This document shows positions 3-54,606 of a stretch of DNA of 64,000 bases, one piece after another. A model generated the notes under the pieces. That model searched no databases, was not told where the DNA came from, and saw only the letters and a list, made by a program, of their open reading frames with translations. Position 1 is the first letter of the stretch. Each line of letters begins with the position of its first letter. Source of the stretch: Patescibacteria group bacterium (GTDB lineage: Bacteria; Patescibacteriota; Patescibacteriia; UBA1558; GWA2-36-10); the NCBI GenBank assembly GCA_041662585.1, contig JBAZSG010000002.1, positions 13,588 through 77,587 of the forward strand, in the 5' to 3' direction. The translations under genes and the position numbers were made by a program.

Positions 3-1493
3 CGTCAGGCCGAACGAGAATTGAGTATTCCGGCACAGGTCAAGGCGTGTCAAAAATATGGAATGGATCACAATTGGACTCTTGCACCGGATGGCATCTA
101 CGAAGAAAAGGGCGAATCGGCAAGAACCACCGATCGTCCACAGCTTCAAAAAATGCTTCACAGGTCAAAATCCGACACAAAAATTGATGTTATTTTGATG
201 CACAAGCTTGATCGTATGTGTCGCAATGTCGCCGATTATGCGGCGATCAAAATGATGCTTAAAAAACATGATGTTAGGTTGATCTCAGTGGTTGAGCAAT
301 TCGACGAGTCCTTCTCTGGAGAGCTAGTCGAAAACATTATGTCGTCAATTGCTCAATGGACATCTCAAAACATCAGCTGGGAGGTCAGGAAGGGTCTTAA
401 AGAGGCCGTAGAGCGTGGTCGGTTCCCGGGATACGCACCAATTGGGTATACGAACGATAAAAAAACCAAGTCTCTCATTATCGATAACATTCGGGCCCCT
501 TATATAAAACTGGCTTTTGAACTATATGCCACCGGCAAGTATTCGTATGATTCTCTGTCTGCCGATCTTAATAAGCGAGGTCTAAAAAGCAAATCAGGCA
601 AACATGTTAATCGCAAATCAATTGAGCATTTTCTCTGTAATCCAATTTACTATGGTCTTATAAAAACTCGATCGGCCACCTGTCAGGCAAACTTTCCACC
701 CTTAATCTCTAAAAAGCTTTTTGATGATGTTCAGGAGGTAGTCCAACAGCACAATCATTATGCTGATCGTACTCGCAAGCACTCATATCCTATGGCAGGG
801 TTCATGAGATGTGCTGTGTGTGGGTCTACACTTTGCGGACAGATGCAAAAGGGTCATCTTTACTATTCTTGTACTCACTGGCAAGACAAAAACTGCACAG
901 AACGCAAATATATGCGATGGGAGGTTGTTGAGGAACAGGTCGCTAACCAGTTATCACGGGTTCATCTACCTGATAAGTTTAAGAAGGTACTTGATTCTTA
1001 CTTTCAATATTTTGCCAAAGAAAGGCTCGAACAAGAAGACAAAGAACGCAAGAGTCTCAAGCGTGAGCTTATAAGAGTTCAACAACAGATTCGCAACATT
1101 GTCGTGGATCGTTCTAAGCGTATCATTGACGCAGATGTCTTTATAAAGATTCAGGATGAGCTTTTAAAGGAGAAGGAAATGTATCAGGATCGCTTGGGGG
1201 TACTTGAGGGCAAGTCTGACAAATTCGTGCAGAAATTTAATGAGTTGCTGGACTTCACGGATCATGCCGACAAGGTGTTCAACACCAGCTCAATGCATCA
1301 AAAACGCACACTGATGAAGCTTTGTTTTGAGGGATTCACTGTCAGTAATCAAAAACTGACGCCGATATGGACGCCAGTCTTTGATGTTCTTATGGATTTG
1401 CAAGTTTCCAAACTCGAACCACCGAAACCGTCAAAGGACTTAAAAACCCTTGCAGTTTCTAAAGTTCAAAGTTGGAAATCTGGCGGAGAGTAA
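3..1493 (+). CDS. Large serine recombinase (resolvase/invertase N-terminal domain plus recombinase and zinc-ribbon region), 5'-partial at the window edge
   Basis: The reading frame is open from nt 3. The sequence SIPAQ...DRPQLQKMLH...IDVILMHKLDRMCRN matches the serine-recombinase catalytic domain (S..Q core and DR.P.L motif), and about 350 aa of recombinase/Cys-rich region follow (CAVCG...YYSC). The stop codon overlaps the 3' end of the minus-strand tRNA-Ser. Confidence 0.8.
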   Translation, partial: RQAERELSIPAQVKACQKYGMDHNWTLAPDGIYEEKGESARTTDRPQLQKMLHRSKSDTKIDVILMHKLDRMCRNVADYAAIKMMLKKHDVRLISVVEQFDESFSGELVENIMSSIAQWTSQNISWEVRKGLKEAVERGRFPGYAPIGYTNDKKTKSLIIDNIRAPYIKLAFELYATGKYSYDSLSADLNKRGLKSKSGKHVNRKSIEHFLCNPIYYGLIKTRSATCQANFPPLISKKLFDDVQEVVQQHNHYADRTRKHSYPMAGFMRCAVCGSTLCGQMQKGHLYYSCTHWQDKNCTERKYMRWEVVEEQVANQLSRVHLPDKFKKVLDSYFQYFAKERLEQEDKERKSLKRELIRVQQQIRNIVVDRSKRIIDADVFIKIQDELLKEKEMYQDRLGVLEGKSDKFVQKFNELLDFTDHADKVFNTSSMHQKRTLMKLCFEGFTVSNQKLTPIWTPVFDVLMDLQVSKLEPPKPSKDLKTLAVSKVQSWKSGGE

Positions 1494-1570
1494 GGGATTC
1501 GAACCCTTGAAAGCTTTTACACTTTACCCGCTTTCCAAGCGAGCGCACTCGACCACTATGCGAACTCTCC
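1481..1570 (-). tRNA. tRNA-Ser (anticodon GGA), long variable arm, encoded CCA
   Basis: The reverse complement reads GGAGAGTTCGCATAGTGGTCGAGTGCGCTCGCTTGGAAAGCGGG...AAGGGTTCGAATCCCTTACTCTCCGCCA. It has a 7-bp acceptor stem, a T-loop GGTTCGAATCC, an anticodon loop TTGGAAA (GGA) and a long variable arm; length is 90 nt. Confidence 0.85.
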
Positions 1571-1626
1571 ATGATTTAACTAATTTTCTAAATATTTCTC
1601 CTCATTTATAATATTCCCCTTATCTG

Positions 1627-1682
1627 TTTCTTAGCCACCCCCACGTAGCGGGGTCCCGCTTCGCGGGATATGCGAACTCTCC
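1627..1682. repeat. 56-bp direct repeat, copy 1: tttcttagccaccccc(a/g)cgtagcggggtcccgcttcgcgggatatgcgaactctcc
   Basis: Near-identical copy at 1941-1996 with 1 mismatch. It contains the hairpin TCCCGC-TTC-GCGGGA. The last 14 nt (tatgcgaactctcc) equal the 5' end of tRNA-Ser (GGAGAGTTCGCATA on the minus strand). Confidence 0.8.
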
Positions 1683-1931
1683 TTATTTAAATTCTCCAAT
1701 GAGCTTCTTAAATTTTATTCCTCCCTTATAAGACTTAATTTCTAACTCTCTTCTATATGCTTCTGATTTAGTATTATAAATCTCCGTGTAAATTAATTTC
1801 CATGGAGCAAACTTTTTAGAATAAACAGATCTTCCAGTATTATGCCTTAAAATTCTATCATTTAAATCCTTTGTATGCCCTGTATAATACTTACCAAACT
1901 TTAAACTTTTCAAAATATAAACTTTATACAT
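1683..1931 (-). CDS. Small GIY-YIG nuclease-domain protein (82 aa)
   Basis: MYKVYILKSLKFGKYYTGHTKDLNDRILRHN...YRRELEIK has the GIY-YIG signature (Y.Y...G..Y.G.T......R...H). The start is trimmed to the internal Met, because the longer ORF reads through repeat copy 2. Confidence 0.65.
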   Translation of the reverse strand: MYKVYILKSLKFGKYYTGHTKDLNDRILRHNTGRSVYSKKFAPWKLIYTEIYNTKSEAYRRELEIKSYKGGIKFKKLIGEFK

Positions 1932-1940
1932 ACCATCGCT

Positions 1941-1996
1941 TTTCTTAGCCACCCCCGCGTAGCGGGGTCCCGCTTCGCGGGATATGCGAACTCTCC
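1941..1996. repeat. 56-bp direct repeat, copy 2
   Basis: Matches 1627-1682 with one mismatch. It lies immediately upstream of the GIY-YIG start codon on the minus strand. Confidence 0.8.
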
Positions 1997-2089
1997 AAAA
2001 CACGGTTTCTAGTATAAATTTTATTGCCCATTTAGTCAATACAGCCTATCTATGATAAAATAAATACTAATAGATTAACTATATCACTT

Positions 2090-3043
2090 ATGTTAGAAAT
2101 ATTTATAGTAATAATACCTCTATTTTTAATAATCTTTGGCTCAGCTATTATTGCTCGTATCAAAAAGCTAGATGAAAATTGGGAAAAAGTGCTCAATTCT
2201 TTTGCTTTGAATGTCGGGCTACCAGCTTTGATATTTTCATCTTTAGCCAAAGTATCATTTAAGGGTCAAGTTGATATTATCATTGCCAATTCTTTGTTTT
2301 TATTGCTAAGCTTTGCTTTGATCTATATCTTAAGTAAAAATTTTAAGATAAGCCGTAAAACTATAAAAACTTTATTTATCTGTTTTGCTTTTGGTAATAT
2401 TGCTTATCTTGGCATTCCGGTGTTGACTCAAATATATGGTGCCAAAATATTACCTAATGCTAGCCTGATTGTTGGTGTACATTTATTTTGGTTGTTTACC
2501 ATTGGTCTAGGCTTTTTGGATTATGATTTGACTAGTCGTCAGAGCTGGATTGGTAAATTGTTTCACAAAAAAAATAAACAAGCTATTATCAAACACATTG
2601 GTTTTAATTTACTAAAAAATCCTCTATTAATTTCTATTTTTCTAGGCTTATTAGTCGCTATAGCTGATATTCGTCTACCAAGGCTCATAGCTACAACCAT
2701 AGATATGCTCGCTGCGTCAGTCAGCCCTGTAGTGCTGGTAGTTATAGGTTTATTTATTGGCAACTCTCAAATCGGCAAACTCAAAGAATGGATTCCAATT
2801 TTTATTTTTAGTATTATAACTTTATTGGTATTACCGGGAGCATTTTATTTGGGACTAAAAATATTTGCGACTGACTTGTCCAAATATATTCCCTCAATGA
2901 TTGAAATTGCTATGCCTCTAGCCATTACTCCTTTTGCCTTGGCTGATAAATTTGATTTAGATAAAAAATTTATTGCTCGGGCTATAGTACTGAGCACAAT
3001 ATTATCTATTATTACTATCCCTATTTGGGCTAGTATATTATAA
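2090..3043 (+). CDS. Auxin-efflux-carrier (AEC) family transporter / permease
   Basis: 317 aa with about 10 predicted transmembrane helices. The N-terminal pattern LNSFALNVGLPALIFSSL and C-terminal half are typical of AEC/malate-permease-like proteins. Confidence 0.55.
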   Translation: MLEIFIVIIPLFLIIFGSAIIARIKKLDENWEKVLNSFALNVGLPALIFSSLAKVSFKGQVDIIIANSLFLLLSFALIYILSKNFKISRKTIKTLFICFAFGNIAYLGIPVLTQIYGAKILPNASLIVGVHLFWLFTIGLGFLDYDLTSRQSWIGKLFHKKNKQAIIKHIGFNLLKNPLLISIFLGLLVAIADIRLPRLIATTIDMLAASVSPVVLVVIGLFIGNSQIGKLKEWIPIFIFSIITLLVLPGAFYLGLKIFATDLSKYIPSMIEIAMPLAITPFALADKFDLDKKFIARAIVLSTILSIITIPIWASIL

Positions 3044-3052
3044 AGACAAACT

Positions 3053-3095
3053 AAAACAACCTGCGAGGTTGACCCAAGCTCGCAGGTTGTTTTTT
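3053..3095. terminator. Bidirectional rho-independent terminator between convergent AEC gene and ppsA
   Basis: aaaa-aacctgcgag-(11-nt loop)-ctcgcaggtt-gtttttt: a 10-bp perfect stem flanked by an A-run and a T-run. Confidence 0.8.
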
Positions 3096-3099
3096 AAAT

Positions 3100-5505
<2,406 letters not shown>

Positions 5506-5556
5506 ATTTTCTTTATTTACCAGCGCCTTTGGCGTGGTCCCGCTTGGCGGGATAAA

Positions 5557-5865
5557 TTAAAATTTTAGTTTCTTGGCATATCTACCCAAAAATGGCATTT
5601 CCCAAAAACTACCATTAAGAGCATTGATTACTCCTAGTATTGCCAGTAGCATTACCAAAAGAGCCAAAGCCCAGCCAATAATTGGCACAGGAAAAAACCA
5701 ACCAAACAATAGCTCTACAGCAAACAAGAGCAAGCCTTGCTTGGCGTGGAATTGAGCTAATTTGGATTTTCTTTTAAATAGCAATGGTATTAGACATAGT
5801 GCCCAAACATAAGACAAGGCAGCCATGGTACCATTTGCTTCTAAATCTTTTTTATCTACTTCCAT
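5557..5865 (-). CDS. DUF4870-family small membrane protein
   Basis: 102 aa. ALSYVWALCLIPLLFKR...FHAKQGLLLF matches the DUF4870 pattern, with 2-3 transmembrane helices. Confidence 0.55.
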   Translation of the reverse strand: MEVDKKDLEANGTMAALSYVWALCLIPLLFKRKSKLAQFHAKQGLLLFAVELLFGWFFPVPIIGWALALLVMLLAILGVINALNGSFWEMPFLGRYAKKLKF

Positions 5866-10295: not shown

Positions 10296-11615
10296 CTACT
10301 CTTGATGATGTTTATACATATTTACTAGCCCCAAAGACATGAGTATCCACCCTGTCCAAGAAGTCCAAAGATAATGATCAAAGAAACCAATAATTATTAA
10401 GCCCATTATCAAACTAGTAGACATAATATCTATTTTATTAGCCGATTTTATAATACGCCTTACTGTATAAACTATAAAAAAAGCTCCAATAAGCCCTAGC
10501 TCAGCAAACATAAGTATAAATATGTCATGGATTGGTTGGACATTGTACACTTCTTGATGAGGATATTTTTCTAAAGTAGCCAAAGTATTCATCCCCAAGC
10601 CTTGCCCAAAAAATACATTTTTATAATTGTCCCAACCCAGTTGAGCAAAAGTATCTACTCTTTCAATGACTGATTTTTGTTCTAATCGTCCATTCATCTC
10701 AATGCGAGTAGACCAAGCTCCTGGAAACCAAGTATTAAAAGACCAAAAAACCAGAAAAAATATAAATAAATATTTAACTATAATATTTACACTAAGCCAG
10801 TTTCTTTTAAAAACATTTATCACGGTCAAAGAAAATAAACTAAGCAACAATGCCAATATAGCACTACGAGAAAAACTAGCTAATATGCCATAAGTACTAA
10901 TCACTAAGGCTATAATGATAAAAATTAAATTCCAAAAATTTATTTTCTTAAAAAATTTATTCCAAAAATTTGACTCATTATTTTTATAAGCTTCTATCCA
11001 AAGATAAATACCAAAAAATATTACTACAAACAAAAATCCGCCCAAGACATTGGGATGTGGCAGGGATCCATAGGCTCTCAGTATCCTATTGTCAGCAAAC
11101 TCTACTACCGAAGTACCAAGCGTAGATGGTAAGTGCTCTGATATACCTAGCCATTTACTAGCTACTACTTTTTGAGTAAATAATTGATAAATAGCCAAAA
11201 TACCTTGAAGGGTACCTGAAAATAAAAAAGCACGATAAACAAATATTTTTGGTATAAATCTTACTAAATAAGCAAAAATAACTGCACTATAGATCAAAAA
11301 TAAATAATAAAAAGATACCAGTGGTGCTGGTGAACGAAAACTAATAACTACCGAATAAATAAATAAAATATAAAAAAAATTGGAGTGTGAAAAATGAAGT
11401 TCTTTTTTCTTATATAAGGCAAAAAATATAGTAGCCAAAAGTAAAACAATAACACTAGCATAAAGACTAAGCCTACCATATTCCCACAGCTCTATGCCTA
11501 GTGGCCAATCATAAAAAAGCCATCTGGTTTGCCACGGAATAAGTAAAACGAACAAACTCAAGAAAAAATGAAATAAGTTTTGATAATTTAGCTTAAATTT
11601 ATTTTTTTTAAACAT
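10296..11615 (-). CDS. O-antigen ligase / Wzy-like polytopic membrane protein
   Basis: 439 aa with more than 10 transmembrane helices and a central periplasmic loop containing the SRSA motif common in O-antigen ligase-like proteins. Confidence 0.45.
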   Translation of the reverse strand: MFKKNKFKLNYQNLFHFFLSLFVLLIPWQTRWLFYDWPLGIELWEYGRLSLYASVIVLLLATIFFALYKKKELHFSHSNFFYILFIYSVVISFRSPAPLVSFYYLFLIYSAVIFAYLVRFIPKIFVYRAFLFSGTLQGILAIYQLFTQKVVASKWLGISEHLPSTLGTSVVEFADNRILRAYGSLPHPNVLGGFLFVVIFFGIYLWIEAYKNNESNFWNKFFKKINFWNLIFIIIALVISTYGILASFSRSAILALLLSLFSLTVINVFKRNWLSVNIIVKYLFIFFLVFWSFNTWFPGAWSTRIEMNGRLEQKSVIERVDTFAQLGWDNYKNVFFGQGLGMNTLATLEKYPHQEVYNVQPIHDIFILMFAELGLIGAFFIVYTVRRIIKSANKIDIMSTSLIMGLIIIGFFDHYLWTSWTGWILMSLGLVNMYKHHQE

Positions 11616-11638
11616 AAATATTAATTAATTCTATAGGT

Positions 11639-12583
11639 CTAATTTTTATTTATTAATACATGTACTCTTTCTCGCCACTGCTTAGCAAATAACTCACGAT
11701 TATCATTGGAATAAAATTTGAGCATTTGCTCATTGACAATGACCCGAGTATCAATATTTATCAAAGTCTTAAGATTTTTATCAATAATTTTTATTTGAAT
11801 CATACGATAAAAATTATAAACAAAACGCCTAATAAATGGCGGATTAAAAATAAACGCGATAATAATATTGGAAATTTTTGATAAAAGACTACTATACACT
11901 TCTTTGGCAAATTGATTTGGATAAGCGTTGGGCAAATAATTTTTATACCAATGATTTTCTTCTAAAAATTTTTCATACAAACCATCCGGATTATAAACTG
12001 GTATAAGATTGGTGAGCCAATAAGGATAATAAATATCATCTTTATTCATTTGGCTACTTTCAATATTTAAATATTTTTCATCTACAAAAAAACTAAGACA
12101 AAATGTATCTTTCTTACTATCCTCTCTAGGTCGCATATGCAAAAATTTTACAATCAAAATAGTAAAAAATCTAGCGAGCCAAATAGTACCACGACGAGAA
12201 ATAATAAATAAATCTATATCACTTTTTTCTCCAGCATTACTATAACCCAAGGAGTTACAGACAGCTACCATTCTTACAAAGGGAATAAAACGATACACTT
12301 TGGCCAAATATATAACTTTACGAAATTTTCTTTCAGCCAGATTGTTGCGTTGCTTACGCTTTAGGTATATAGAATCCCTACCTTTTATATGATAAAAACC
12401 TTCTTTGCTATCAAGTTTATCTTTCAAAATCTGGCTAGTAGCCAAAGTTTCTCTAAGGTCAGCTAAACTGTATTTTTGTTGTGGTTTATAAAGCCACTTC
12501 CACAGCTCACTAGCTGTCAGTGGGTAAGAAAAAACATCAAAAAAAGCAATAGTTTTAAGAATGGCTTTTTCTAAATCATTCAT
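11639..12583 (-). CDS. Hypothetical protein with minimal nucleotidyltransferase-like motif
   Basis: NSLGYSNAGEKSDIDLFIISR resembles the G[SG]...SDID signature of the polymerase-beta nucleotidyltransferase fold. The rest is unassigned. Confidence 0.3.
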   Translation of the reverse strand: MNDLEKAILKTIAFFDVFSYPLTASELWKWLYKPQQKYSLADLRETLATSQILKDKLDSKEGFYHIKGRDSIYLKRKQRNNLAERKFRKVIYLAKVYRFIPFVRMVAVCNSLGYSNAGEKSDIDLFIISRRGTIWLARFFTILIVKFLHMRPREDSKKDTFCLSFFVDEKYLNIESSQMNKDDIYYPYWLTNLIPVYNPDGLYEKFLEENHWYKNYLPNAYPNQFAKEVYSSLLSKISNIIIAFIFNPPFIRRFVYNFYRMIQIKIIDKNLKTLINIDTRVIVNEQMLKFYSNDNRELFAKQWRERVHVLINKN

Positions 12584-12621
12584 GCCTATATAATACTCAA
12601 AAATGACATTTATTACAAGAA

Positions 12622-12653
12622 ATAAAAATCCCCTGTTAAGGGGGATTTTATTT
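12622..12653 (-). terminator. Rho-independent terminator downstream of uvrA (hairpin family CCCCCTGTTAAGGGGG)
   Basis: aaaaatcccc-tgttaag-ggggatttta: a GC stem followed by a U-run on the minus strand. Confidence 0.7.
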
Positions 12654-15500
12654 ATTTTTATTAATCATTTTGGCTAAATAATTGCCCGTATGAGATTCTT
12701 TGACTTTAGCTACTTCAATAGGGGTGCCTTTGGCGACTATTTGTCCACCTTTGTCTCCTCCTTCTGGACCAAGATCTATTACCCAATCAGAGGATTTTAT
12801 AACATCTAAATTATGTTCAATTACTAACACTGTATTACCTTTGTCTACCAAACGATGTAAAACTTCCAAGAGTCTTTTCACATCATCAAAATGAAGTCCT
12901 GTAGTAGGCTCATCCAAAATATATAAAGTCCTGCCGGAAGAACGACGAGAAAGCTCGGTAGCCAGTTTGATACGCTGAGCTTCTCCACCAGATAAGGTAG
13001 TGGCTGGTTGCCCCAGTTTTATATAGCCCAGTCCTACATCAACTAGAGTTTTCAATTTATTATAAATATTTGGTACATCATCAAAAAAATCCATAGCCTC
13101 TTCAGCTGTCATAGACAAAATTTCTGAAATATCTTTACTCTTATAATGAATCTCCAAGGCTTCTTCATTATATCTTTTGCCATGACACTCTTTACACTCT
13201 ACATATACATTTGGCAAAAAATTCATTTCTATTTTTATAGAACCATCACCCTGACAATTTTCACAACGTCCACCTTTGACATTAAAAGAAAATCTACCAG
13301 CTTTGTATCCTCTGATTTGAGCCTCAGCCAATTCGGCAAACAAATCTCTAATATAAGTAAAGGCTCCCGTATAAGTAGCTGGGTTTGATCTTGGTGTACG
13401 GCCAATTGGAGACTGATCAATATCAATTACTTTATCAATATTTTCCAAACCTTTTATTTCTCGATGTTCGCCCGGATTGTCTTTTGATCTATAAAAATGT
13501 TTGGTCAAGGCTTTGGCCAAAATTTCAGTCATTAGAGTTGATTTGCCAGATCCAGAAACACCAGTAATTGATATAAATTTACCCAAAGGAAATTCTACAT
13601 CTATATCTTTCAAATTAAATGCTTTGGCTCCCAAAATAGACAAAGTTTTGCCATTGCCTTTTCTGTATTTTTTGGGCATTGGAATAAATTTTTTACCAGC
13701 CAAATACTGCCCCGTAAGAGATTTGGCGTTCTTCTTAACAGCCTCTGGAGTACCAGCTGCTACCACCTCACCACCATGTTTGCCAGCTCCCGGACCAATA
13801 TCTATCAAATAATCAGCTTCTAGCATTGTTTCTTCATCGTGCTCAACTACTATTACTGAATTACCCAAATCTCTTAACTCTTTGAGAGTTTTGATGAGTT
13901 TGGCATTGTCTATCTGATGAAGACCAATAGATGGCTCGTCCAAAATATACAAAACACCAGTAAGTGAAGAGCCAATCTGAGTAGCCAAGCGAATACGCTG
14001 AGCTTCTCCGCCTGACAAAGTAGAAGCTGTTCTATCCAAAGTAAGATAATTTAAGCCTACATTTTCCAAAAATACCAAACGATCTCTAATGGCCTTTATA
14101 ATTTGTTTGGCAATAATATTTTCATTTTCCGACAATTGTTTTGATAAGCCTTTAAATTCTTTTTGCAAATCATCAATGTTTTGAGCCACAATATCGGCAA
14201 TACTTTTTCCAGCTATCTTTATATTTAGTACCTCTGCTTTCAATCTTTTGCCCTGACAGTCTTTGCAAATTTCTATTCTCATATATCTCTCAATTTCACT
14301 CCGGATATATTCTGAATCTGTTTCTTTGTATCTTCTTTCTAGATTGGCTACGACTCCTTCAAAGGTATTATTGTTGTTATTAGAAAATTTTGAATTATCA
14401 ATGTCTAGTTTATAAATTTCATCTCCCGTACCATTAAAAATAATATCTAGTTGTTTGCTAGTTAGTTTATCTATTGGCACTCTGGTAGAAAATTTGTATT
14501 TTTGAGCCACTGCTTCAATGATAGCCGTATACCAATTTTGATTGGCCGCTGTCCTAGACCAAGGACGAATAGCTCCTTCAGCTAAAGATAATTTTTTGTT
14601 AGGAATTACCAAGTCTTGATCAACTGTCAATTTGGTACCTAGTCCTGTACAAGCAGGACAAGCTCCATGAGGGCTATTGAAAGAAAAGTTTCTAGCCTCA
14701 ATAGATGAAAAAACCACTTCGGGATGTTCTAAACAAGTAAAATGTTCGCTAAAAATATTATCTTCTTTTTCTCTGGATAAATAAGCTGTCAAAAATCCAT
14801 TGCCCATATCTAGGGCAATATCTACCACCTGAGTAAGTCTTTCTTTGGTTTTTTTGGTACCATCACATCTAAGATGATCAATAGCTACTTCTATACTGTG
14901 TCTTTTGTGTTTGTCTAGGTCTAGTTCTAAAGCTTCTTTTATATTATAAAATTCTCCATCAATTCTTAATTTTTTATAACCAGAAACCTTAAATCTTTCA
15001 ATAACCTGACGATGCTCGCCTTTTTTGTTTTTTATAATCGGAGCCAAAATTATAAATTCAGATTCTTTTGGTAATTGCCAAATTTTATTTACAATTTCTT
15101 TTTGAGTCAATTGAATCAAAACTTTGGAACATTTATGACAATGCGGTGTACCAGCTTTGGCAAATAAAAGCCTAAGATAATCATATATTTCAGTCACTGT
15201 GCCAACAGTAGAGCGAGGATTTCTAGAAGAAGATCTTTGATCAATAGATATAGCTGGAGAAAGCCCATCAATTTGCTCAACATCTGGTTTGTCCATCAAA
15301 TCCAAAAACTGTCTGGCATATGAAGAAAGTGATTCTACATAACGACGTTGCCCTTCGGCATAAATGGTATCAAACGCTAAAGAAGACTTTCCTGATCCAG
15401 AAAGTCCCGTAATTACCACAAATTTATTGCGTGGAATTTTTACATCTATATTTTTGAGATTGTGCACTTTGGCACCCTTGATGGTAATAAATTGAGGCAT
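12648..15500 (-). CDS. uvrA: Excinuclease ABC subunit A
   Basis: [66 protein letters not shown]. Two ABC ATPase modules, zinc-finger Cys clusters, and LSGGEAQR signature motifs present twice. Confidence 0.95.
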
Positions 15501-15608
15501 AAAATTATAAAATTTTAAAACAATAATCCTGACCATGGTAACATGGATTTATTACTAAGTCAATGACTAAAGAGTTTACAGCAAAATAAAAAGAACTTTA
15601 TAGCATGG

Positions 15609-15637
15609 TTGACAAAAAGACCTTTATTTGCTAGTAT
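15609..15637 (+). promoter_or_regulatory. Sigma70-like promoter for secG
   Basis: TTGACA - 17 nt - TAGTAT, 30 nt upstream of the secG ATG. Confidence 0.45.
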
Positions 15638-15667
15638 AAAGTAGTTATTTATTACTTCTTACAACCG

Positions 15668-15886
15668 ATGAAAAACTTAATCTATATTATCCAAATTGTG
15701 GTTTCCATTCTTTTGATGATCACTATTTTGCTACAACAAAAAGGATCTGGGCTAGGTGCTGGTTTTGGTGGCGAAAGTACTGTTTATCGTACCAAAAGAG
15801 GTGCAGAAAAATTTATTTTCAAACTTACAATTATTTTAGCTGTCTTATTTTTGGCCACCTCTTTGGCTAATATATTTATAGATTAG
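15668..15886 (+). CDS. secG: Preprotein translocase subunit SecG
   Basis: 72 aa. LLQQKGSGLGAGFGG is the SecG signature, flanked by two transmembrane helices. Confidence 0.75.
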   Translation: MKNLIYIIQIVVSILLMITILLQQKGSGLGAGFGGESTVYRTKRGAEKFIFKLTIILAVLFLATSLANIFID

Positions 15887-15943
15887 CTAATAGTTAATAA
15901 TTAAAATAAAAATATACTAGGCTTCTCCAAAATTAAAAGTTTT

Positions 15944-17788
15944 TTGATTTTTGTAAAAAATAAAAGTCAAAGTATCTTTGATAGTTTTTTTTCTTTATTA
16001 AAAAAAGGTAAAGACAAAATAGCCCCGGCTGAAAATGAAGATATCAATCAACAACTCATAATCCAACTCAACAAAAAAAAGATTCCTAGCCCCAGTCAAT
16101 TAAAGCACCTACCAAAATTCCTTAACAAACGAGAAAAACTCCAATTGTTACTAGCTCTGGCTATACTCATAGTATCCAGCGTTGGTATTACTTGGCGTTT
16201 CTATATAAAAAATTCAATCCCTGCTCCAAAATACGGTGGTGTTTACTCCGAAGGAATGATAGGCGTCCCTAGTTTGGTAAATCCAATACTAGCTACTTCT
16301 GATGTAGATAGAGATTTGACCAAGTTGATATTTTCTGGCCTGATGAAACAAGATGAAAATAATCAACTGATTCCTGATCTCGCTGGTGGCTATACTATAG
16401 ACGCAGAGCAGACTACCTATACTTTTGAATTGCGCGATGATATTCGTTGGCATGATGATACTCCAATCACAGCCAATGATGTAATATTTACTATAAACAA
16501 CATCAAAAATCCCGAGTATAAAAGTCCTTTTAAAAATAGTTTTAACGGTGTAACTGTCCAAGCTATAAATGACAAAACCATTCAGTTCAAATTGGAAAAA
16601 CCATTTACTCCTTTCTTATCAATTTTGACTCTTGGTATTATACCCGAACACCTTTGGTATTCTATCCCCGCCTTTGGAGCCAATCTAGCTGATTTAAATA
16701 TTAGACCAATAGGTAGTGGTCCTTATAAATTTAAATCATTGACCAGAGAAAGTAGTGGTAATATAAAATCCTATGTCTTAGAAGCTTATGAAGACTACTA
16801 TTTAGATAAAGCCTACATAAAAGAACTAAACTTCAAGTTTTATCCTGATTTTTCAACAGCTGTCACAGCCCTACAAAATAAAAATGTAGATGGACTCATA
16901 TATTTACCAAAAGAATATAAAGAGGTATTAAAAAATACAAATATTATTTTACATAATTTGCAATTTCCTCAATACACTGCTATTTTCTTTAATCCTAGCA
17001 AAAACGATCTATTGAATAACAACAGTTTTCGTGAAGCCTTGGCACTTTCAGTAGACAAAGAAAGAATATTAAATGAAGTATTGTATGGTGATGGACAAAT
17101 AATCAGCACTCCTATATTACCAGGACTTTTGGGTTATGATAGTACTATAAAAGCCCCCGAGTACAATCCAGAAAAATCCAAAGAAATCTTGGATAATCTA
17201 AAATTTACCATACCTGAAGACGGAAAATTTCGTACGCAAAGCAAAGATGACGAAAGTATAGAAATAAGTATAAAGCTTACCACTATAGATCAAACTGAAA
17301 ATGTAAAAATCGCGTCTATTATTCAAGAAAACTGGCAAAACATTGGTATCAAAACTGAGCTAAATATTATAGCTAAAGATAAAATAAAAAAAGATATTAT
17401 TGAAACCAGAGATTATGAAGCCCTAATTTTTGGTCAAGTCATAAATACCAATTCTGGGCCTTATCCTTTCTGGCACTCTAGTCAAAACAAAAACCCTGGC
17501 TTAAATCTCAGTGTCCTGGCCAACAAAGATATTGATGATTATCTAGATATAATACGTAGTGCAAAAAATGAAGAAAGTGAAATAGAACCATTGAAAAAAT
17601 TTCAAACCAAGCTATTGGAATTAAACTTTGCTATATTTTTATATAATCCTACTTATACTTACCCTACGGCTGACAAATTAAAAGGTATGGAAAACCTAAA
17701 ATTTATAAATTTGCCAGCTGATAGATTTAACAATATTACGTCTTGGTATATAAAAACCAAACGTATATTTTCTAGTGATAAAGATTAA
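15944..17788 (+). CDS. ABC transporter substrate-binding protein, family 5 (peptide/nickel type), membrane-anchored
   Basis: N-terminal transmembrane anchor, then YGGVYSEGMIGVPSLVNPILA...DDIRWHDDTPITANDV, typical of the SBP_bac_5 N-terminal region. Confidence 0.6.
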   Translation: MIFVKNKSQSIFDSFFSLLKKGKDKIAPAENEDINQQLIIQLNKKKIPSPSQLKHLPKFLNKREKLQLLLALAILIVSSVGITWRFYIKNSIPAPKYGGVYSEGMIGVPSLVNPILATSDVDRDLTKLIFSGLMKQDENNQLIPDLAGGYTIDAEQTTYTFELRDDIRWHDDTPITANDVIFTINNIKNPEYKSPFKNSFNGVTVQAINDKTIQFKLEKPFTPFLSILTLGIIPEHLWYSIPAFGANLADLNIRPIGSGPYKFKSLTRESSGNIKSYVLEAYEDYYLDKAYIKELNFKFYPDFSTAVTALQNKNVDGLIYLPKEYKEVLKNTNIILHNLQFPQYTAIFFNPSKNDLLNNNSFREALALSVDKERILNEVLYGDGQIISTPILPGLLGYDSTIKAPEYNPEKSKEILDNLKFTIPEDGKFRTQSKDDESIEISIKLTTIDQTENVKIASIIQENWQNIGIKTELNIIAKDKIKKDIIETRDYEALIFGQVINTNSGPYPFWHSSQNKNPGLNLSVLANKDIDDYLDIIRSAKNEESEIEPLKKFQTKLLELNFAIFLYNPTYTYPTADKLKGMENLKFINLPADRFNNITSWYIKTKRIFSSDKD

Positions 17789-17828
17789 ATTATTACTAAC
17801 TAACAATTAAACATAAAAAACAACCGCT

Positions 17829-19811
17829 ATGAATGCAATGAAAGATTCAACCGATAATTTATTATCCGGTACTAATAGTACTAACCAACGTAAAGCAAAC
17901 ACTCCTCCACAAGGGAAAAAAACATATCCTCCAAAAAGAGGTGGTGTTAATAATGCTAATATTAAACAGACTACTAGACCTCAAAAAACAAAAAAAAGAT
18001 GGGGCAAAAAAACAACTATAAACCCTATTCAAAATGAGACAAAACAAACAACCAACACTCTCCATAAAAAACAAAATCAAAAACTTCATAAATATAGCAA
18101 AAGACCAGACACTGCAAAAACCAAAACTACTACTCGCCCACTAGCCGCCAACAAATTAAGAGTTATCCCTATTGGTGGTTGTGAAGAAGTTGGTCGTAAT
18201 ATGACTGTCTTTGAATATGGCAACGATATCATAATTGTTGACATGGGCTTACAATGGCCAGAAGAAGACATGCCAGGCATTGATTATATTATTCCGAATA
18301 TTGAATATCTGAAAGGTAAAGAAAAAAATATCCGTGGTGTAATCATCACCCATGGTCACTATGACCATATTGGAGCCATACCTCATCTAATACCAAAGCT
18401 TGGCCACCCTGATATTTATGGTACTCCTTTGACTCTAGGTATTATAGCCAAACGCCAAGAAGACTTTAGAGGAGAAAAATCTTTAAATCTAAAATCTATT
18501 ACCCCTAGTACCAAACTAGCTCTAGGAAAATTTAGACTTAGTTTTTTTGGTGTTAGTCACAATATCCCAGGATCTGTAGGTGTGATAATTGATACTCCGA
18601 TTGGAAAAATAGTGCACACTGGTGACTTTAAACTAGACATCAAAGCTTCAGGGGATGCTCCAACTGAAATAGCCAAAATAAAAGCTCTAGGAAATCAAAA
18701 TGTCGTAGCTCTGATGGCTGACTCTACCAATGCTCCTCAAACTGGACATCAATTGACTGAAGGCGATATCCAAACCAATATAGATGATATATTGACACAG
18801 GCCACTGGTAGAACAATAGTTGGTACCTTTGCTTCCCTTTTGGGTAGAATCCAGCAAATCATTTGGGCAGCTGAAAAAATAAATAAAAAAGTAGTTATTG
18901 AAGGATTTTCAATGAAAAGAAATGTTGAATTGGCCCAACAACTTGGCTATATGAAAGTCAAAAAAGGGACTATTATACAACTCAAAGACATGAAAAGCTA
19001 CCCTGATAATAAGATTATTATCATGTGTACTGGCGCTCAAGGTGAAGACAATGCTGTACTTATGCGTATCGCGACCAATGAACATCGAGTGCTCAAAGTA
19101 GAACGCGGTGACACAATAGTCTTTTCTTCTTCCGTGATTCCTGGTAATGAAAGATCTGTGCAAAGATTAAAAGATTATCTCTATAGAAAAGGTGCTGAAG
19201 TAATCAACTATCAAATGATGGATGTCCATGCTGGTGGTCATGCTAAACAAGAAGATTTATTTGATATGATCCAAATGGTCAAACCAAAATATCATATCCC
19301 AGTCTATGGAAATCACTCTTTCTTAAAAATGCATGGCAAAGTAGCTCAGAGAGCTGGCATACCAGAAAATAGAATTTTTATACCAGACAATGGACAATTT
19401 ATAGAATTTGGACCAAATGGTGTGGGCTTACTCACCAATGATAAAACCAACTCTGAATATGTATTTGTGGATGGTTTGGGAGTAGGTGATGTATCTCATG
19501 TCGTGTTACGCGATCGTAAAATGATGGCCGAAGATGGTATGATAGTAGTCATCACTACTATTGGTAAAAATGGTAAATTGATTCATTCTCCAGATATAAT
19601 CTCACGTGGATTTATATATATGAGAGAAAACAAAGAAATTGTAGAAACCATCAGAACCAAAATAAAAAATATTGTAAATGAACACAATAAAACAAGTGGT
19701 AAAATAAATGATACTTACATAAAAGAAGCTATCAGAAACGATCTAGGACAATTTATATTCCAAAAAACCAAAAGAAGACCAATGGTCTTACCAGTGGTTA
19801 TCGAAGTTTAA
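17829..19811 (+). CDS. rnj: Ribonuclease J (metallo-beta-lactamase/beta-CASP) with a basic low-complexity N-terminal extension of about 105 aa
   Basis: IPIGGCEEVGRNMTVFEYGNDIIIVDMG and HGHYDHIGAIP (the metallo-beta-lactamase HxHxDH motif), followed by beta-CASP and C-terminal domains. No alternative ATG lies between the annotated start and the catalytic core. Confidence 0.85.
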   Translation: MNAMKDSTDNLLSGTNSTNQRKANTPPQGKKTYPPKRGGVNNANIKQTTRPQKTKKRWGKKTTINPIQNETKQTTNTLHKKQNQKLHKYSKRPDTAKTKTTTRPLAANKLRVIPIGGCEEVGRNMTVFEYGNDIIIVDMGLQWPEEDMPGIDYIIPNIEYLKGKEKNIRGVIITHGHYDHIGAIPHLIPKLGHPDIYGTPLTLGIIAKRQEDFRGEKSLNLKSITPSTKLALGKFRLSFFGVSHNIPGSVGVIIDTPIGKIVHTGDFKLDIKASGDAPTEIAKIKALGNQNVVALMADSTNAPQTGHQLTEGDIQTNIDDILTQATGRTIVGTFASLLGRIQQIIWAAEKINKKVVIEGFSMKRNVELAQQLGYMKVKKGTIIQLKDMKSYPDNKIIIMCTGAQGEDNAVLMRIATNEHRVLKVERGDTIVFSSSVIPGNERSVQRLKDYLYRKGAEVINYQMMDVHAGGHAKQEDLFDMIQMVKPKYHIPVYGNHSFLKMHGKVAQRAGIPENRIFIPDNGQFIEFGPNGVGLLTNDKTNSEYVFVDGLGVGDVSHVVLRDRKMMAEDGMIVVITTIGKNGKLIHSPDIISRGFIYMRENKEIVETIRTKIKNIVNEHNKTSGKINDTYIKEAIRNDLGQFIFQKTKRRPMVLPVVIEV

Positions 19812-19843
19812 CCCTTGCCTGTATTTATCCCCTAACACCCTAA

Positions 19844-19869
19844 ATCCCCCTTAACAGGGGGATTTTTTC
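19844..19869 (+). terminator. Rho-independent terminator after rnj
   Basis: atccccc-ttaaca-gggggat-ttttt. Confidence 0.8.
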
Positions 19870-19996
19870 ATTATCTATTATTTATCTCCTCCCCTGTTAA
19901 GGGGAGGTCGGGAGGGGTTAAGACGGAGGGGTGTTTTTATTTGACCCAAAGCGTTTATTTAGATAAAATATGATTATAGATTATTATAAAAAATAA

Positions 19997-20950
19997 ATGA
20001 AAAAATTATTTTCCGGTATCAAGCCAACAGGCAAAATTCATCTAGGCAACTATCTAGGAGCTTTAAAAAATTGGATAGATTTACAAGATAAATATACCTG
20101 CCTTTACTCTGTTGTAGATATGCACGCTTTGACTATAAACATTGGCCCTGATGAACTACGTGCCAATAGTATGCAAGTCGCTATAGACCTTTTGGCCTTG
20201 GGCATTGATCCCAAAAAATCTATCTTTTTCCGTCAATCTGATGTCATTGGACATACTGAACTAGCTTGGATATTTAATTGTCTTACCCCTATTTCTGAGC
20301 TAGAAAGAATGACTCAGTTTAAAGATGAATCAAAAAGTCACTCTGACAATGTCAATGCTGGTCTACTTACTTATCCTACTCTGATGGCGGCTGATATTTT
20401 ACTCTATCAAGCTGAAAATGTACCAGTGGGAGAAGACCAATTACAACATTTGGAACTAGCACGTATTATTGCTAGAAAATTTAACAATCGTTATCAAAGA
20501 TACTTTCCTGAAACCAAAGCCATCATATCTCCAGCTAGACGAGTAATGTCTCTCAAATATCCTAATAAAAAAATGAGCAAATCTCATGGTGAGGCAAGTT
20601 ACATTGCTATCCGAGATGATGAAGGCACTGTAAATAAAAAAATAAAAAAAGCAGTCACTGACAATCAAGGTATTTTAAATTTACTAGAGCTATATTCATA
20701 TTTTGGTGATCAAGATAAATATGAAAAAATGATGACCTTACACAAAACTAATAAACTAATGAGTCTACAACTAAAAGAAGAGTTGACCAAAGTTATATTA
20801 GAATTTCTAAGGCCTGTTCAGGAAAAAATAGCCTATTATGAAAATAATAAATCTAAAGTAGAGCTTATACTCCATGAAGGTGCCAAAAAAGCTCAAAGAA
20901 TAGCTGATCAAACCATGACTCAAGTCAAACAACTAATTGGTTTAAAATAG
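19997..20950 (+). CDS. trpS: Tryptophan--tRNA ligase
   Basis: MKKLFSGIKPTGKIHLGNYLGAL is the class I HIGH-type motif. KMSKS is present. 317 aa, typical TrpS length. Confidence 0.85.
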   Translation: MKKLFSGIKPTGKIHLGNYLGALKNWIDLQDKYTCLYSVVDMHALTINIGPDELRANSMQVAIDLLALGIDPKKSIFFRQSDVIGHTELAWIFNCLTPISELERMTQFKDESKSHSDNVNAGLLTYPTLMAADILLYQAENVPVGEDQLQHLELARIIARKFNNRYQRYFPETKAIISPARRVMSLKYPNKKMSKSHGEASYIAIRDDEGTVNKKIKKAVTDNQGILNLLELYSYFGDQDKYEKMMTLHKTNKLMSLQLKEELTKVILEFLRPVQEKIAYYENNKSKVELILHEGAKKAQRIADQTMTQVKQLIGLK

Positions 20951-38828: not shown

Positions 38829-38898
38829 CATCCCGCCTTTGGCGGGATCAAGAATTCGTAACTACTTAGACTTCGTCTTCGTAGACGAATTCTTGATA
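38829..38898. terminator. Two adjacent hairpins between convergent genes (atcccgcc-ttt-ggcgggat; tcaagaattcgt-N25-acgaattcttga)
   Basis: 8-bp and 12-bp perfect stems. Convergent 3' ends of the module and queA. Confidence 0.6.
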
Positions 38899-54267: not shown

Positions 54268-54606
54268 AAACGTTCCTTTCTTTTTTGCTGGTTAGTGGTA
54301 TGAAAAAGAACTTAAGTTACAAAAAAATACCTCTCCAGGCATTTTTGTAAATCAAGCTCATAATATGAGTTTTATCTACACAACGCCGGTTACGCTACTA
54401 GCTCCAAACTGTCCAAGCGTCCAAATACAGACAGTCCTTCATCGCCTCATTGAATGATATTTAATGTAATCAATAATAACTTAACATAAATATTTTATTT
54501 TGTAAATATTATAAATTTAATGCCCAAAACCAATACTTTTGTTTTTTTATTCATTTTGTTGTATAATATACTTATCTAAAAAATAAAAATCAATTAAAAT
54601 AAAATT

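Follow-up and report, generated by a model that had tools for sequence, protein, structure and literature searches.

Tandem double-hairpin and GIY-YIG units beside a bacterial tRNA-Ser gene: a probable homing-like cassette of tRNA genes

Introduction

To our knowledge, every characterised GIY-YIG homing endonuclease has a DNA-binding domain, and the Seg proteins of T-even phages possess a separate DNA-binding region. The genes for SegA to SegG, and that for SegB above all, resemble the locus described here in that they are free-standing GIY-YIG genes adjoining tRNA genes (PMC2330249). SegB of phage T4 is reported to be a GIY-YIG homing endonuclease that is encoded among tRNA genes and recognises a site with the conserved TψC-coding motif of these genes (PMC2330249), and the seg genes spread by break repair with co-conversion of the flanks, so that a conserved essential gene can serve as the target; duplicated parts of tRNA genes and hairpin elements do not figure in the abstract of that account. 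Stand-alone SLX1-like GIY-YIG proteins have been described as a ‘minimal variant’ (PMC1564403). BH0048 (1zg2) and EF2693 (1ywl), stand-alone UPF0213 proteins of unknown function, consist of the catalytic domain alone, and we found no report of a characterised SLX1-like or UPF0213 member being linked to tRNA genes or hairpins.

Elements of three other kinds invite comparison. Fungal mitochondrial DNA contains double-hairpin elements, mobile G+C clusters and the atp6-ORF mobile element of Allomyces; such elements are short G+C-rich pairs of adjacent stem-loops that occur, with nested insertions, in AT-rich genomes, and the mitochondrial endonuclease ORF brings a replacement piece of its target gene and leaves a displaced pseudo-copy behind. 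REP/RAYT and IS200/IS605 elements have conserved hairpins by a small nuclease gene, make no target duplication and leave solo intergenic copies, and their HUH/Y1 enzymes work through covalent DNA intermediates. Finally, tRNA genes are common targets of integrative elements, which in most cases encode an integrase and leave a second copy of the 3′ portion of the target gene.

Here we describe a 440-bp feature that probably represents two tandem units of a selfish, homing-like cassette associated with tRNA genes. Many uncultured bacteria have the order hairpin, GIY-YIG gene, tRNA gene at their tRNA genes as well. Our literature search, which was incomplete and does not prove absence, returned no published description of such a module.

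Results

The feature lies in the window, by which we mean the whole 64,000-nt stretch of DNA analysed (G+C 0.34). All of its parts are read on the minus strand, 5′ of an intact tRNA-Ser(GGA) gene (1570–1481; ARAGORN; Rfam RF00005, 54.6 bits). Two direct repeats of 56 nt (1627–1682 and 1941–1996), 98% identical with a single C/T difference, bracket an ORF (1931–1683) for an 82-residue GIY-YIG protein. The 14-mer TATGCGAACTCTCC, which is the 5′-most 14 nt of the tRNA-Ser(GGA) gene, occurs three times without mismatch (at 1557, 1669 and 1983), whereas shuffled sequences gave an expectation of zero; the occurrence at 1570–1557 is the start of the tRNA gene itself. On the minus strand, each repeat consists of a copy of tRNA nt 1–14 (distal, 1996–1983; proximal, 1682–1669, adjoining the stop codon of the ORF), a double hairpin of 30 nt (1982–1953 and 1668–1639) and a short, weak match that may be a D-loop remnant, GTGGCTAAGAAA (1952–1941 and 1638–1627). 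Each repeat can thus be read as a partial tRNA copy, split exactly between A14 and G15. The initial annotation had recorded the repeats with their one mismatch, the three 14-mers, the GIY-YIG gene between the repeats and the position of one repeat between the start codon and the promoter region, and all of these were reproduced; the hairpin that it had noted in each repeat is also present, but there are two adjacent ones, at 1982–1968 and 1967–1953 and at 1668–1654 and 1653–1639.

We refer to this conserved G+C-rich pair of adjacent stem-loops, 30–31 nt in length, as the double-hairpin element (DHE). Its letters on the minus strand are TCCCGC-GAA-GCGGGA followed by CCCCGC-TAC-GYGGGG, so that the distal copy is TCCCGCGAAGCGGGA plus CCCCGCTACGCGGGG (53.3 bits, E = 6e-12 with our covariance model R1) and the proximal copy TCCCGCGAAGCGGGA plus CCCCGCTACGTGGGG (48.7 bits, E = 9e-11, and supported by folding). 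The single mismatch between the repeats changes a G-C stem pair to G-T, and pairing is therefore kept. An Rfam search of the hairpin region gave no match: only the tRNA passed, and nothing credible appeared within 1400–2100 at E up to 10. We discarded a tRNA-like cloverleaf for the repeat, which has no 3′ acceptor strand and is predicted to fold into the two hairpins or one long hairpin.

The remnant begins with GTGG, as the continuation of the D-loop does, while the real tRNA-Ser goes on with GTGGTCGAGTGC. When the hairpins of the window were deleted, colinearity with the tRNA reached GTGG only, and 6 of the 12 remnant nucleotides equal those of the tRNA, a weak match that counts against the homing-like reading discussed below. 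The distal remnant is joined to the ATG of the ORF by a 9-nt linker. On the other side, 14 nt upstream of the distal repeat, lies a promoter-like site (2039–2011, TTGACT-17-TATACT), which by its consensus match alone (10 of 12 positions) could drive a single transcript of tRNA copy, hairpins, ORF and tRNA. In the arrangement that we propose, the promoter-like site would precede a full unit of tRNA nt 1–14, DHE, remnant and ORF, and the solo unit would comprise tRNA nt 1–14, DHE and remnant, followed by an AT-rich spacer of 56 nt (1626–1571) and then the tRNA-Ser(GGA) gene. The ideas that this spacer is a relic of an ORF tail and the solo unit a deleted full unit were left as unproven, 121 of 1000 shuffles scoring equally. 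The notion that a partial copy keeps the tRNA promoter was also set aside: a −10-like box within 40 nt upstream was found for 17 partial copies and 14 intact tRNAs (n = 43), a count that does not discriminate in such AT-rich DNA.

The ORF (ATG at 1931–1929, stop codon at 1685–1683) matched PF01541 with 54.2 bits (curated cut-off, 22.6; E = 1.8e-14). The corresponding product of the gene caller, P0001, has 118 residues and is over-extended through the repeat; a look-up of the exact 82-residue protein returned no match because the collection holds this longer call. Profile matches to PDB entries (1zg2, E = 1.1e-12; 1ywl, 1.3e-9; SLX1, 8e-6; I-TevI, 1.4e-3) place the protein, as judged from sequence, in the stand-alone SLX1/UPF0213 branch without an auxiliary domain, the branch to which BH0048 and EF2693 also belong by sequence. 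Alignment A1 (46 sequences, that of the window included) has 16 invariant columns, and the protein agrees with every one of them, among them Y5, Y16, G18, R26, H30, E50 and E62, for which catalytic roles may be assigned by analogy. The 82 residues form an intact GIY-YIG domain, the catalytic part alone. Unlike the Seg proteins, this one has no DNA-binding module beside its catalytic domain; sequence-specific recognition of a tRNA gene is therefore unexplained, which argues against homing. The subfamily differs from the characterised UPF0213 proteins in a conserved C-terminal sequence of its own, R-E-x-E/Q-I-K-S-Y-K-G-G-I-K-F-K, and in a genomic setting that is fixed. The family comprises 5,593 clusters at 50% identity (matches at E of 1e-10 or better), existing annotation of which reads only ‘GIY-YIG nuclease family protein’. 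In contrast to the phage Seg proteins, it is all but missing from collections of phage and viral sequences: a search for carriage by phages or plasmids gave just distant phage matches (14 records, at most 50% identity), one plasmid record and one distant IMG/VR record, and such carriage was rejected.

A large serine recombinase (ORF 21–1493, plus strand) overlaps the 3′ end of the tRNA gene by 13 nt, and the region adjoining it, with HTH_3, AAA, Vsr and Z1 genes, resembles an integrated island. The initial annotation had entertained iterated att-site duplications next to the recombinase, and the repeats could be traces of att type from several rounds in which the recombinase integrated and excised that island. 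The duplicated part, however, is the 5′ portion of the tRNA, and the tRNA lies between the repeats and the island. Serine recombinases exchange strands at a 2-bp core, which would leave no long duplications. In the 10 kb beyond the recombinase the 3′ end of the tRNA is not found again, and the recombinase lies outside the repeats rather than in an insert with a repeat at either end. Furthermore, none was called within 3 kb of the GIY-YIG gene in the annotated contexts of two further families, and at L050, the locus of the closest relative, the nearest is 7 kb away. The att explanation is thus already contradicted and we regard it as extremely improbable; the recombinase lies 3′ of the tRNA and is the outermost gene of an island distinct from the cassette. 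The locus does share with integrase-type elements a partial tRNA copy flanking the insert and a preserved intact tRNA. It differs from them in that usually the 5′ part is duplicated, the insert is about 300 nt without a recombinase, and the copy is split by hairpins.

Recurrence was assessed in two samples. For the first, the hairpin core was scanned over 185,579 species genomes, which yielded 49 loci. Both hairpins were present in roughly 30 of these, all of low G+C; about 18 pattern matches of high G+C (0.56–0.73) had no second hairpin and were treated as chance. Of the roughly 30 double-hairpin loci, about 21 are within or next to a tRNA gene or a fragment of one, and in about 10 the hairpin is followed by GIY-YIG and then tRNA, all on the same strand. 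Removal of the hairpins restored colinearity with the tRNA over 41 of 41 nt at L018, 44 of 44 at L002, 44 of 46 at L007 and 31 of 34 at L004. The hairpin stems are conserved and the loops vary freely; 4 of the 12 pairs show compensatory changes, a count taken from loci preselected for hairpin formation.

The second sample was drawn by GIY-YIG similarity alone, independently of the hairpin, and comprised 80 metagenome loci, 66 of them non-redundant. In 53 of the 66, an intact tRNA gene (Ser, Tyr, Thr, Pro or Gly) follows the ORF on the same strand, counting tRNAs that start between −40 and +300 nt from the ORF stop; most are within 25 nt of the stop or overlap it. Five loci show the mirror form, with the tRNA upstream of the ORF, and four of these have a clear partial 3′ tRNA copy downstream. 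Of the 61 loci with at least 160 nt of upstream sequence, 48 have a TCCCGC-type hairpin within 160 nt 5′ of the ATG, as compared with 8 of 808 control windows. The inserts cluster after tRNA positions 14, 21 and 35/36, or after position 12 in the Thr type. The ORF is wedged between the partial and the full tRNA, almost always 15–35 nt from the DHE. Thus, hairpin, GIY-YIG gene and tRNA gene occur together at dozens of independent loci and with several tRNA species, which bears out the earlier suggestion that a small mobile or homing unit is associated with the tRNA.

Units of all three kinds (full, solo and tandem) were found; the tRNA genes that carry them are for Ser, Tyr, Thr, Pro, Gly and Glu. 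The repeat-bracketed architecture of the window is seen again in L082 and L118. Tandem ORFs or C-terminal relics are present at 13 loci, and L114 consists of repeated units of ORF plus hairpin-riddled pseudo-tRNA. The protein clusters follow tRNA class (45 of 55 have their nearest neighbour in their own class; 3 of 2000 permutations), a correlation that fits long vertical residence too. Identical proteins never occurred in differing contexts (P0012 on 12 contigs and P0013 on 15, each always in one same context), and no orthologous empty site was recovered among these contigs; the mobility of the cassette is therefore something that we infer from its distribution.

With model R1, we detected three DHE copies in the 64-kb window. 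The third, a diverged one (5552–5521, minus strand; 22.5 bits, E = 5e-4), is at a non-tRNA site, in a 51-nt spacer 5′ of the PEP synthase start, 15 nt upstream of the start codon and flanked by TTAATTTA and TAAATAAA. Despite this copy, the hairpin is strongly tied to tRNA and GIY-YIG genes, so that the repeats are not mere instances of a common intergenic element. Four further DHEs (L012, L016, L026 and L033) likewise occur at non-tRNA sites with no nearby ORF, and all five lie inside short inverted repeats. Such copies are better explained by an independently moving hairpin than by pure co-conversion. The DHE itself might then be the mobile entity, like a REP or MITE sequence, that enters DNA hairpin loops without target duplication while the GIY-YIG protein acts in trans (cf. 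RAYT/REP); the partial tRNA copies would be the only tRNA-like places that tolerate insertion, and the ORF would be carried beside one of them. Consistent with this, the inserts are clean, without duplicated flanks, in either orientation and at D-, anticodon- and T-loop positions, and several may be nested or multiplied within one partial copy (L028, L049, L054, L079 and L082). The stem sequence is conserved across records labelled as different phyla, which suggests recognition by a protein, and the nearest solved relatives of the window protein include SLX1, a structure-specific nuclease. Strand transfer, however, would be impossible for a hydrolytic GIY-YIG nuclease alone; GIY-YIG is the sole domain found in the protein, as opposed to the HUH/Y1 domain of the REP/RAYT and IS200/IS605 enzymes. 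Three copies in 64 kb fall far below REP-like abundance, and the low copy number and the tie to tRNA genes also set the cassette apart from those elements. It shares with them the conserved hairpins by a nuclease gene and insertion free of target duplication. Pure mobilisation in trans does not predict an ORF 15–35 nt from the DHE, between a partial and a full tRNA. We consider a mobile hairpin of this kind unlikely as the whole explanation, although it overlaps the homing-like cassette and does not exclude it.

Alternatively, the module could serve the host or act at the RNA level, the hairpins being a 5′-UTR or leader (a stabiliser, processing site or operator) of a tRNA-linked nuclease of tRNA or nucleic-acid metabolism, and the partial tRNA copy a regulatory decoy such as an autorepression site. 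The hairpins sit between the promoter-like site and the start codon, as the third DHE also sits 15 nt 5′ of one, and the sole difference between the repeats of the window retains a G-U pair. The ORF and the tRNA are on one strand, 0–25 nt apart or overlapping, which makes co-transcription likely. In addition, a prokaryotic SLX1-like GIY-YIG domain has been noted as a fusion to the tRNA Gm18 methyltransferase TrmH (PMC1564403). On the other hand, the occurrence of units in tandem, alone or in mirror form, of decayed ORFs and of hairpins nested in one another resembles parasitic turnover and not a regulatory design that is conserved. With respect to the ORF, hairpins of either orientation are seen, many tRNA species are involved, and the ORF is found at just one of several tRNA-Ser genes per locus. 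On balance, a host function seems quite improbable.

Discussion

The anatomy of the 440-bp feature, the fact that it recurs and its link with tRNA genes are matters of observation; the mechanism is our reading of them, and we think it probable that the two tandem units belong to a homing-like cassette that parasitises tRNA genes. The cassette consists of a DHE, a tRNA-like remnant only some nucleotides long and a gene for a minimal, 82-residue GIY-YIG nuclease of the SLX1/UPF0213 type, seated between a displaced partial copy of the tRNA 5′ part and the intact tRNA gene, with the DHE splitting the partial copy exactly within a loop-coding position, here that of the D-loop. The displaced tRNA promoter would transcribe cassette and tRNA together, and normal tRNA processing would free the tRNA. 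The nuclease may break DHE-free tRNA or tRNA-like DNA at loop-coding positions, and repair would then copy a DHE-bearing template, with the tRNA sequence on either side of the DHE providing homology, so that the DHE and the adjacent ORF enter the site by a homing-like gene conversion. One tRNA copy would stay intact through the partial duplication, while the DHE would destroy the target in the displaced copy. Repeated rounds, together with deletions between direct repeats, could yield tandem units, ORF relics and solo units. Against homing, the presumed target would still be present in the intact tRNA beside the cassette.

By having short G+C-rich stem-loop pairs, nesting and AT-rich DNA, the DHE resembles the mitochondrial double-hairpin elements, a resemblance rather than homology. 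It differs from them in residing on a bacterial chromosome instead of an organelle genome and in occupying tRNA loops instead of protein-coding or intergenic targets. If our reading is true, the cassette is a bacterial-chromosome counterpart to the fungal mitochondrial combination of double hairpin and endonuclease. We suggest tentatively, and with more doubt than conviction, that SLX1-type GIY-YIG genes with DHEs constitute a previously unrecognised class of bacterial mobile elements, which invade loop-coding positions of tRNA genes and survive by partial tRNA duplication. A bolder variant, in which the local tRNA fragment and the hairpins form a guide-plus-scaffold RNA for the nuclease, would explain how an 82-residue protein finds its target; it is much less likely, and we give it very little credence.

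Few sequences in biology are as conserved as tRNA genes, and an element that parasitises them can therefore cross wide taxonomic distances. Should the cassette be what we propose, a large set of orphan stand-alone GIY-YIG genes would gain a role, and a conserved DNA (or RNA) partner of stand-alone GIY-YIG proteins would be identified. Partial copies of tRNA genes in the genomes of uncultured bacteria, and gene calls there that are over-extended, would also be accounted for, and a very small nuclease with a 30-nt cis element would offer a tractable system for site finding that dispenses with a binding domain.

The closest relative of the window protein (81% amino acid identity), encoded at L050, lies at a tRNA-Ser(GCT) gene in a non-syntenic gene context. 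Its ORF matches that of the window, as do 28 of 30 nt of the DHE and 10 of 12 nt of the remnant, whereas its 14-mer is that of its own tRNA and differs from the window 14-mer at 3 of 14 positions. There, the duplication found on either side covers the 14-mer and 20 nt of local leader, and the same locus carries a solo unit at a tRNA-Ser(TGA) gene.

Partial tRNA copies carrying a double hairpin flank the GIY-YIG gene

We read both strands of the region around the tRNA-Ser(GGA) gene (1481–1570, minus strand; ARAGORN and Rfam); the minus strand is the sense strand for this tRNA and for the GIY-YIG ORF alike. A repeat search recovered the two 56-nt direct repeats reported in the initial annotation (1627–1682 and 1941–1996, one mismatch), and the 82-aa ORF between them (ATG at 1931, stop codon at 1685–1683, minus strand) matched the Pfam GIY-YIG family with an E-value of 1.8e-14. 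As had been described, the 14-mer TATGCGAACTCTCC occurs three times (1557, 1669 and 1983), against a chance expectation of none, and is identical to the first 14 nt of the tRNA, ending at A14; its proximal copy directly adjoins the stop codon of the ORF. The distal repeat indeed lies between the ORF start and a promoter-like TTGACT-17-TATACT (2039–2011, minus strand), which is located 14 nt upstream of it. The TCCCGC-type hairpin was present in each repeat, but what had been taken for one hairpin proved to be two adjacent ones, hereafter referred to as the double-hairpin element (DHE).

On the minus strand, each repeat reads GGAGAGTTCGCATA / TCCCGC-GAA-GCGGGA / CCCCGC-TAC-G(C/T)GGGG / GTGGCTAAGAAA, the sole difference between the copies being a change of a G-C stem pair to G-T. 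The repeat tail, GTGG..., starts like the continuation of the tRNA past A14 (GTGGTCGAGTGC). Because the 14-mer corresponds to nucleotides 1–14 of the tRNA and the tail resembles this continuation, each repeat is, as read from the sequence, an incomplete duplicate of the tRNA 5′ end, interrupted precisely at the A14/G15 boundary by a 30-nt DHE. The order of elements is promoter-like site, 14-mer/DHE/remnant, ORF, 14-mer/DHE/remnant, 56-nt spacer and tRNA.

The ORF encodes a minimal GIY-YIG protein

In a structure-profile search, the protein matched UPF0213 (1zg2, E 1.1e-12; 1ywl, 1.3e-9), SLX1 (8e-6) and I-TevI (1.4e-3). By these profile matches, the predicted protein belongs not with I-TevI but with UPF0213 and SLX1, in the ‘minimal stand-alone’ branch of PMC1564403. 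It has many relatives of 80–88 aa, and all 16 invariant columns of a 46-sequence alignment, in which the window protein itself is included, are present in it. The family comprises 5,593 clusters at 50% identity (E 1e-10 or better) and is nearly absent from the phage, plasmid and IMG/VR collections. Many family products predicted in a 1.84-billion-protein library are 100–130 aa long with the match beginning at residue 20–55, suggesting that gene calls routinely run on through the DHE. Gene callers lengthened the ORF upstream across the hairpins and the tRNA fragment, to 118 and 107 aa as compared with ~82 aa; such calls include 1683–2039 (minus strand) in the window (P0001), the protein P0012 and positions 3001–3324 of locus L140.

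Loci chosen by protein alone mostly lie next to tRNA genes

Scanning metagenome contigs with this alignment gave 599 candidates, of which 493 were confirmed and 80 loci kept, with selection by the protein alone and hence independent of the hairpins; 66 were non-redundant. In 53 of the 66, an intact tRNA on the same strand starts between −40 and +300 nt from the ORF stop; counting distinct-protein loci only, the tRNAs were Ser (30), Tyr (17), Thr (2), Pro (1) and Gly (1). Five loci had the mirror form, intact tRNA followed by ORF, with a clear partial 3′ tRNA copy downstream in four; among the remaining eight, four stop at a contig edge. Of the 61 loci with enough upstream sequence, 48 had a TCCCGC-type hairpin in the 160 nt preceding the ATG, as opposed to 8 of 808 control windows. 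Within the partial copies, DHE insertions concentrate behind tRNA positions 14, 21 and 35/36, with position 12 used in the Thr type; the inserts are 30–80 nt long, some with nested hairpins.

The ORF overruns into the tRNA in several loci. In cassettes of Ignavibacteria/Bacteroidota type (L059, L070, L116 and L010), it enters tRNA-Ser by 21–22 nt and ends at the D-loop TGA, giving a C-terminus, ...ERWQSG*, that is translated from the 5′ end of the tRNA. In other cassettes, the anticodon-loop TAA serves as the stop.

Of the 55 classified loci among L052–L131, 47 were of the Ser or Tyr class. Bacterial tRNA-Ser and tRNA-Tyr are class II tRNAs, with a long variable arm, and their predominance may hint at how the target is recognised.

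A hairpin-first scan recovers the same arrangement

A search for TCCCGCNAAGCGGGACCNCGC across 185,579 species, each represented by a single genome, gave 49 loci. About 18, from high-G+C genomes, lacked the second hairpin and were regarded as chance matches. The ~30 low-G+C matches came from records whose own labels are Patescibacteria/CPR, Gammaproteobacteria, Ignavibacteria, Bacteroidota, Omnitrophota and others. In ~21 of them, the DHE lies within a partial copy of the neighbouring tRNA: after A14 in a 5′ fragment of tRNA-Ser or tRNA-Cys, in the anticodon loop of a 5′ fragment of tRNA-Glu, or in the T-loop of a 3′ fragment directly behind the intact tRNA. When the DHE was deleted in silico at four loci, the partial copy became colinear with the neighbouring tRNA over 41/41, 44/44, 44/46 and 31/34 nt. 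About 10 loci had the DHE-bearing partial copy, GIY-YIG ORF and intact tRNA on one strand; others had no ORF. One locus (L027) carries hairpin-split 3′ copies behind a tRNA-Leu. A DHE-split partial tRNA copy, a minimal GIY-YIG ORF and an intact tRNA form a conserved three-part module, seen repeatedly beside different tRNA species and in records assigned to several phyla.

In a set selected for hairpins, the DHE stems are conserved while the loops are free to vary: 97% of cells pair, with compensatory changes in 4 of 12 pairs. No Rfam family matched the hairpin region.

The module is duplicated, decayed and found at different tRNAs

The closest relative, P0002 (81% amino acid identity), lies at a tRNA-Ser(GCT) among unrelated neighbour genes. 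The 14-mer there matches the local tRNA and has 3 mismatches in 14 nt to the 14-mer of the window, whereas the DHE (28/30), the remnant (10/12) and the ORF match those of the window; a 20-nt local leader plus the 14-mer is repeated on either side of the DHE-remnant-ORF unit. Judged by this comparison, the part that travels would begin, on the left, at the 14-mer/DHE junction and end, on the right, at the stop codon. The same locus has a solo unit, a partial tRNA copy and DHE without an ORF, ahead of a tRNA-Ser(TGA) 400 nt away.

The module exists in tandem, solo and decayed forms. The bracketed layout of the window was also seen in L082 and L118, and 13 loci had tandem ORFs or C-terminal relics. 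An array in L114 (98–900) reads intact tRNA-Ser(GCT), ORF, pseudo-tRNA, ORF, pseudo-tRNA; the first pseudo-tRNA is near-full, with single hairpins and one double hairpin inserted, and both ORFs begin 2 nt past a tRNA-like 3′ end. Protein clusters track the tRNA class (same-class nearest neighbour, 45/55; permutation, 3/2000). No orthologous empty site was recovered; identical proteins on many contigs had the same context every time.

The recombinase is a neighbour

The initial annotation had linked the repeats to the adjacent recombinase. This serine recombinase (510 aa, 21–1493, plus strand; the end of the gene shares 13 nt with the tRNA-Ser 3′ end) is instead the edge gene, on the tRNA 3′ side, of an island (10547–20357 of the source contig, L051) that also holds an HTH_3 repressor-like gene, small ORFs, and AAA, Vsr and Z1-domain genes, possibly an integrated element carrying defence genes. 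A second copy of the tRNA 3′ end is absent from the 10 kb that follow. In two sets of annotated contexts of P0012- and P0013-type genes, no recombinase call fell within 3 kb of the gene, and the nearest one at the P0002 locus is 7 kb off. For these reasons, we place the recombinase outside the feature. That the repeats are att-site duplications is one of the weaker explanations.

A proposed breakage-and-repair scheme

We consider a breakage-and-repair scheme the most likely one for the cassette. The nuclease would cut DHE-free tRNA-like DNA at loop-coding positions, and the DHE-bearing copy would be the repair template, the DHE and adjacent ORF being copied in with tRNA homology on both sides. 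Duplication would keep one functional tRNA, the DHE would inactivate the displaced target, and the displaced promoter would drive module and tRNA together. The nearest precedent is T4 SegB, a GIY-YIG enzyme encoded amid tRNA genes and reported to recognise the TψC-coding motif (PMC2330249). The scheme faces three difficulties: the protein lacks a DNA-binding domain, the intact tRNA is still a potential target, and DHEs without an ORF occur at non-tRNA sites. These ORF-less DHEs keep alive the alternative that the DHE is itself a hairpin element, moved by a structure-specific nuclease. That the module serves the host or acts at the RNA level is a weaker explanation.

Full-text literature searches returned no description of the module. 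It unites known themes, namely free-standing homing endonucleases, partial target duplication and double-hairpin elements, the last known from fungal mitochondria. Its novelty appears to lie in the setting and in the minimal nuclease, and there is a real chance that the module is a distinct class of element.

Other hairpins and an unrelated riboswitch

A covariance model run over the window found only three DHEs, namely both copies beside the tRNA and a diverged one at 5521–5552 (minus strand). The latter has no tRNA there; it lies in the 51-nt spacer that separates an ORF (5557–5865) from the PEP synthase start (5505), with a short inverted repeat on its flanks (TTAATTTA / TAAATAAA). A single hairpin at 38831–38853, TCCCGCC-AAA-GGCGGGA, is like the first hairpin of the DHE and matches the model weakly (12 bits). 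In three Omnitrophota genomes (L016, 3431–3482; L026, 3655–3702; L033, 1563–1613), the double hairpin sits within an 8–10-bp outer stem (GGAGGTTT ... AAACCTCC), giving a three-way junction; tRNA and GIY-YIG gene are both absent across these 8-kb loci. Elsewhere in the window, whose genome is Patescibacteria-type in appearance, a c-di-GMP-II riboswitch was detected at 54375–54458 (minus strand; 68.4 bits, above the Rfam gathering score).
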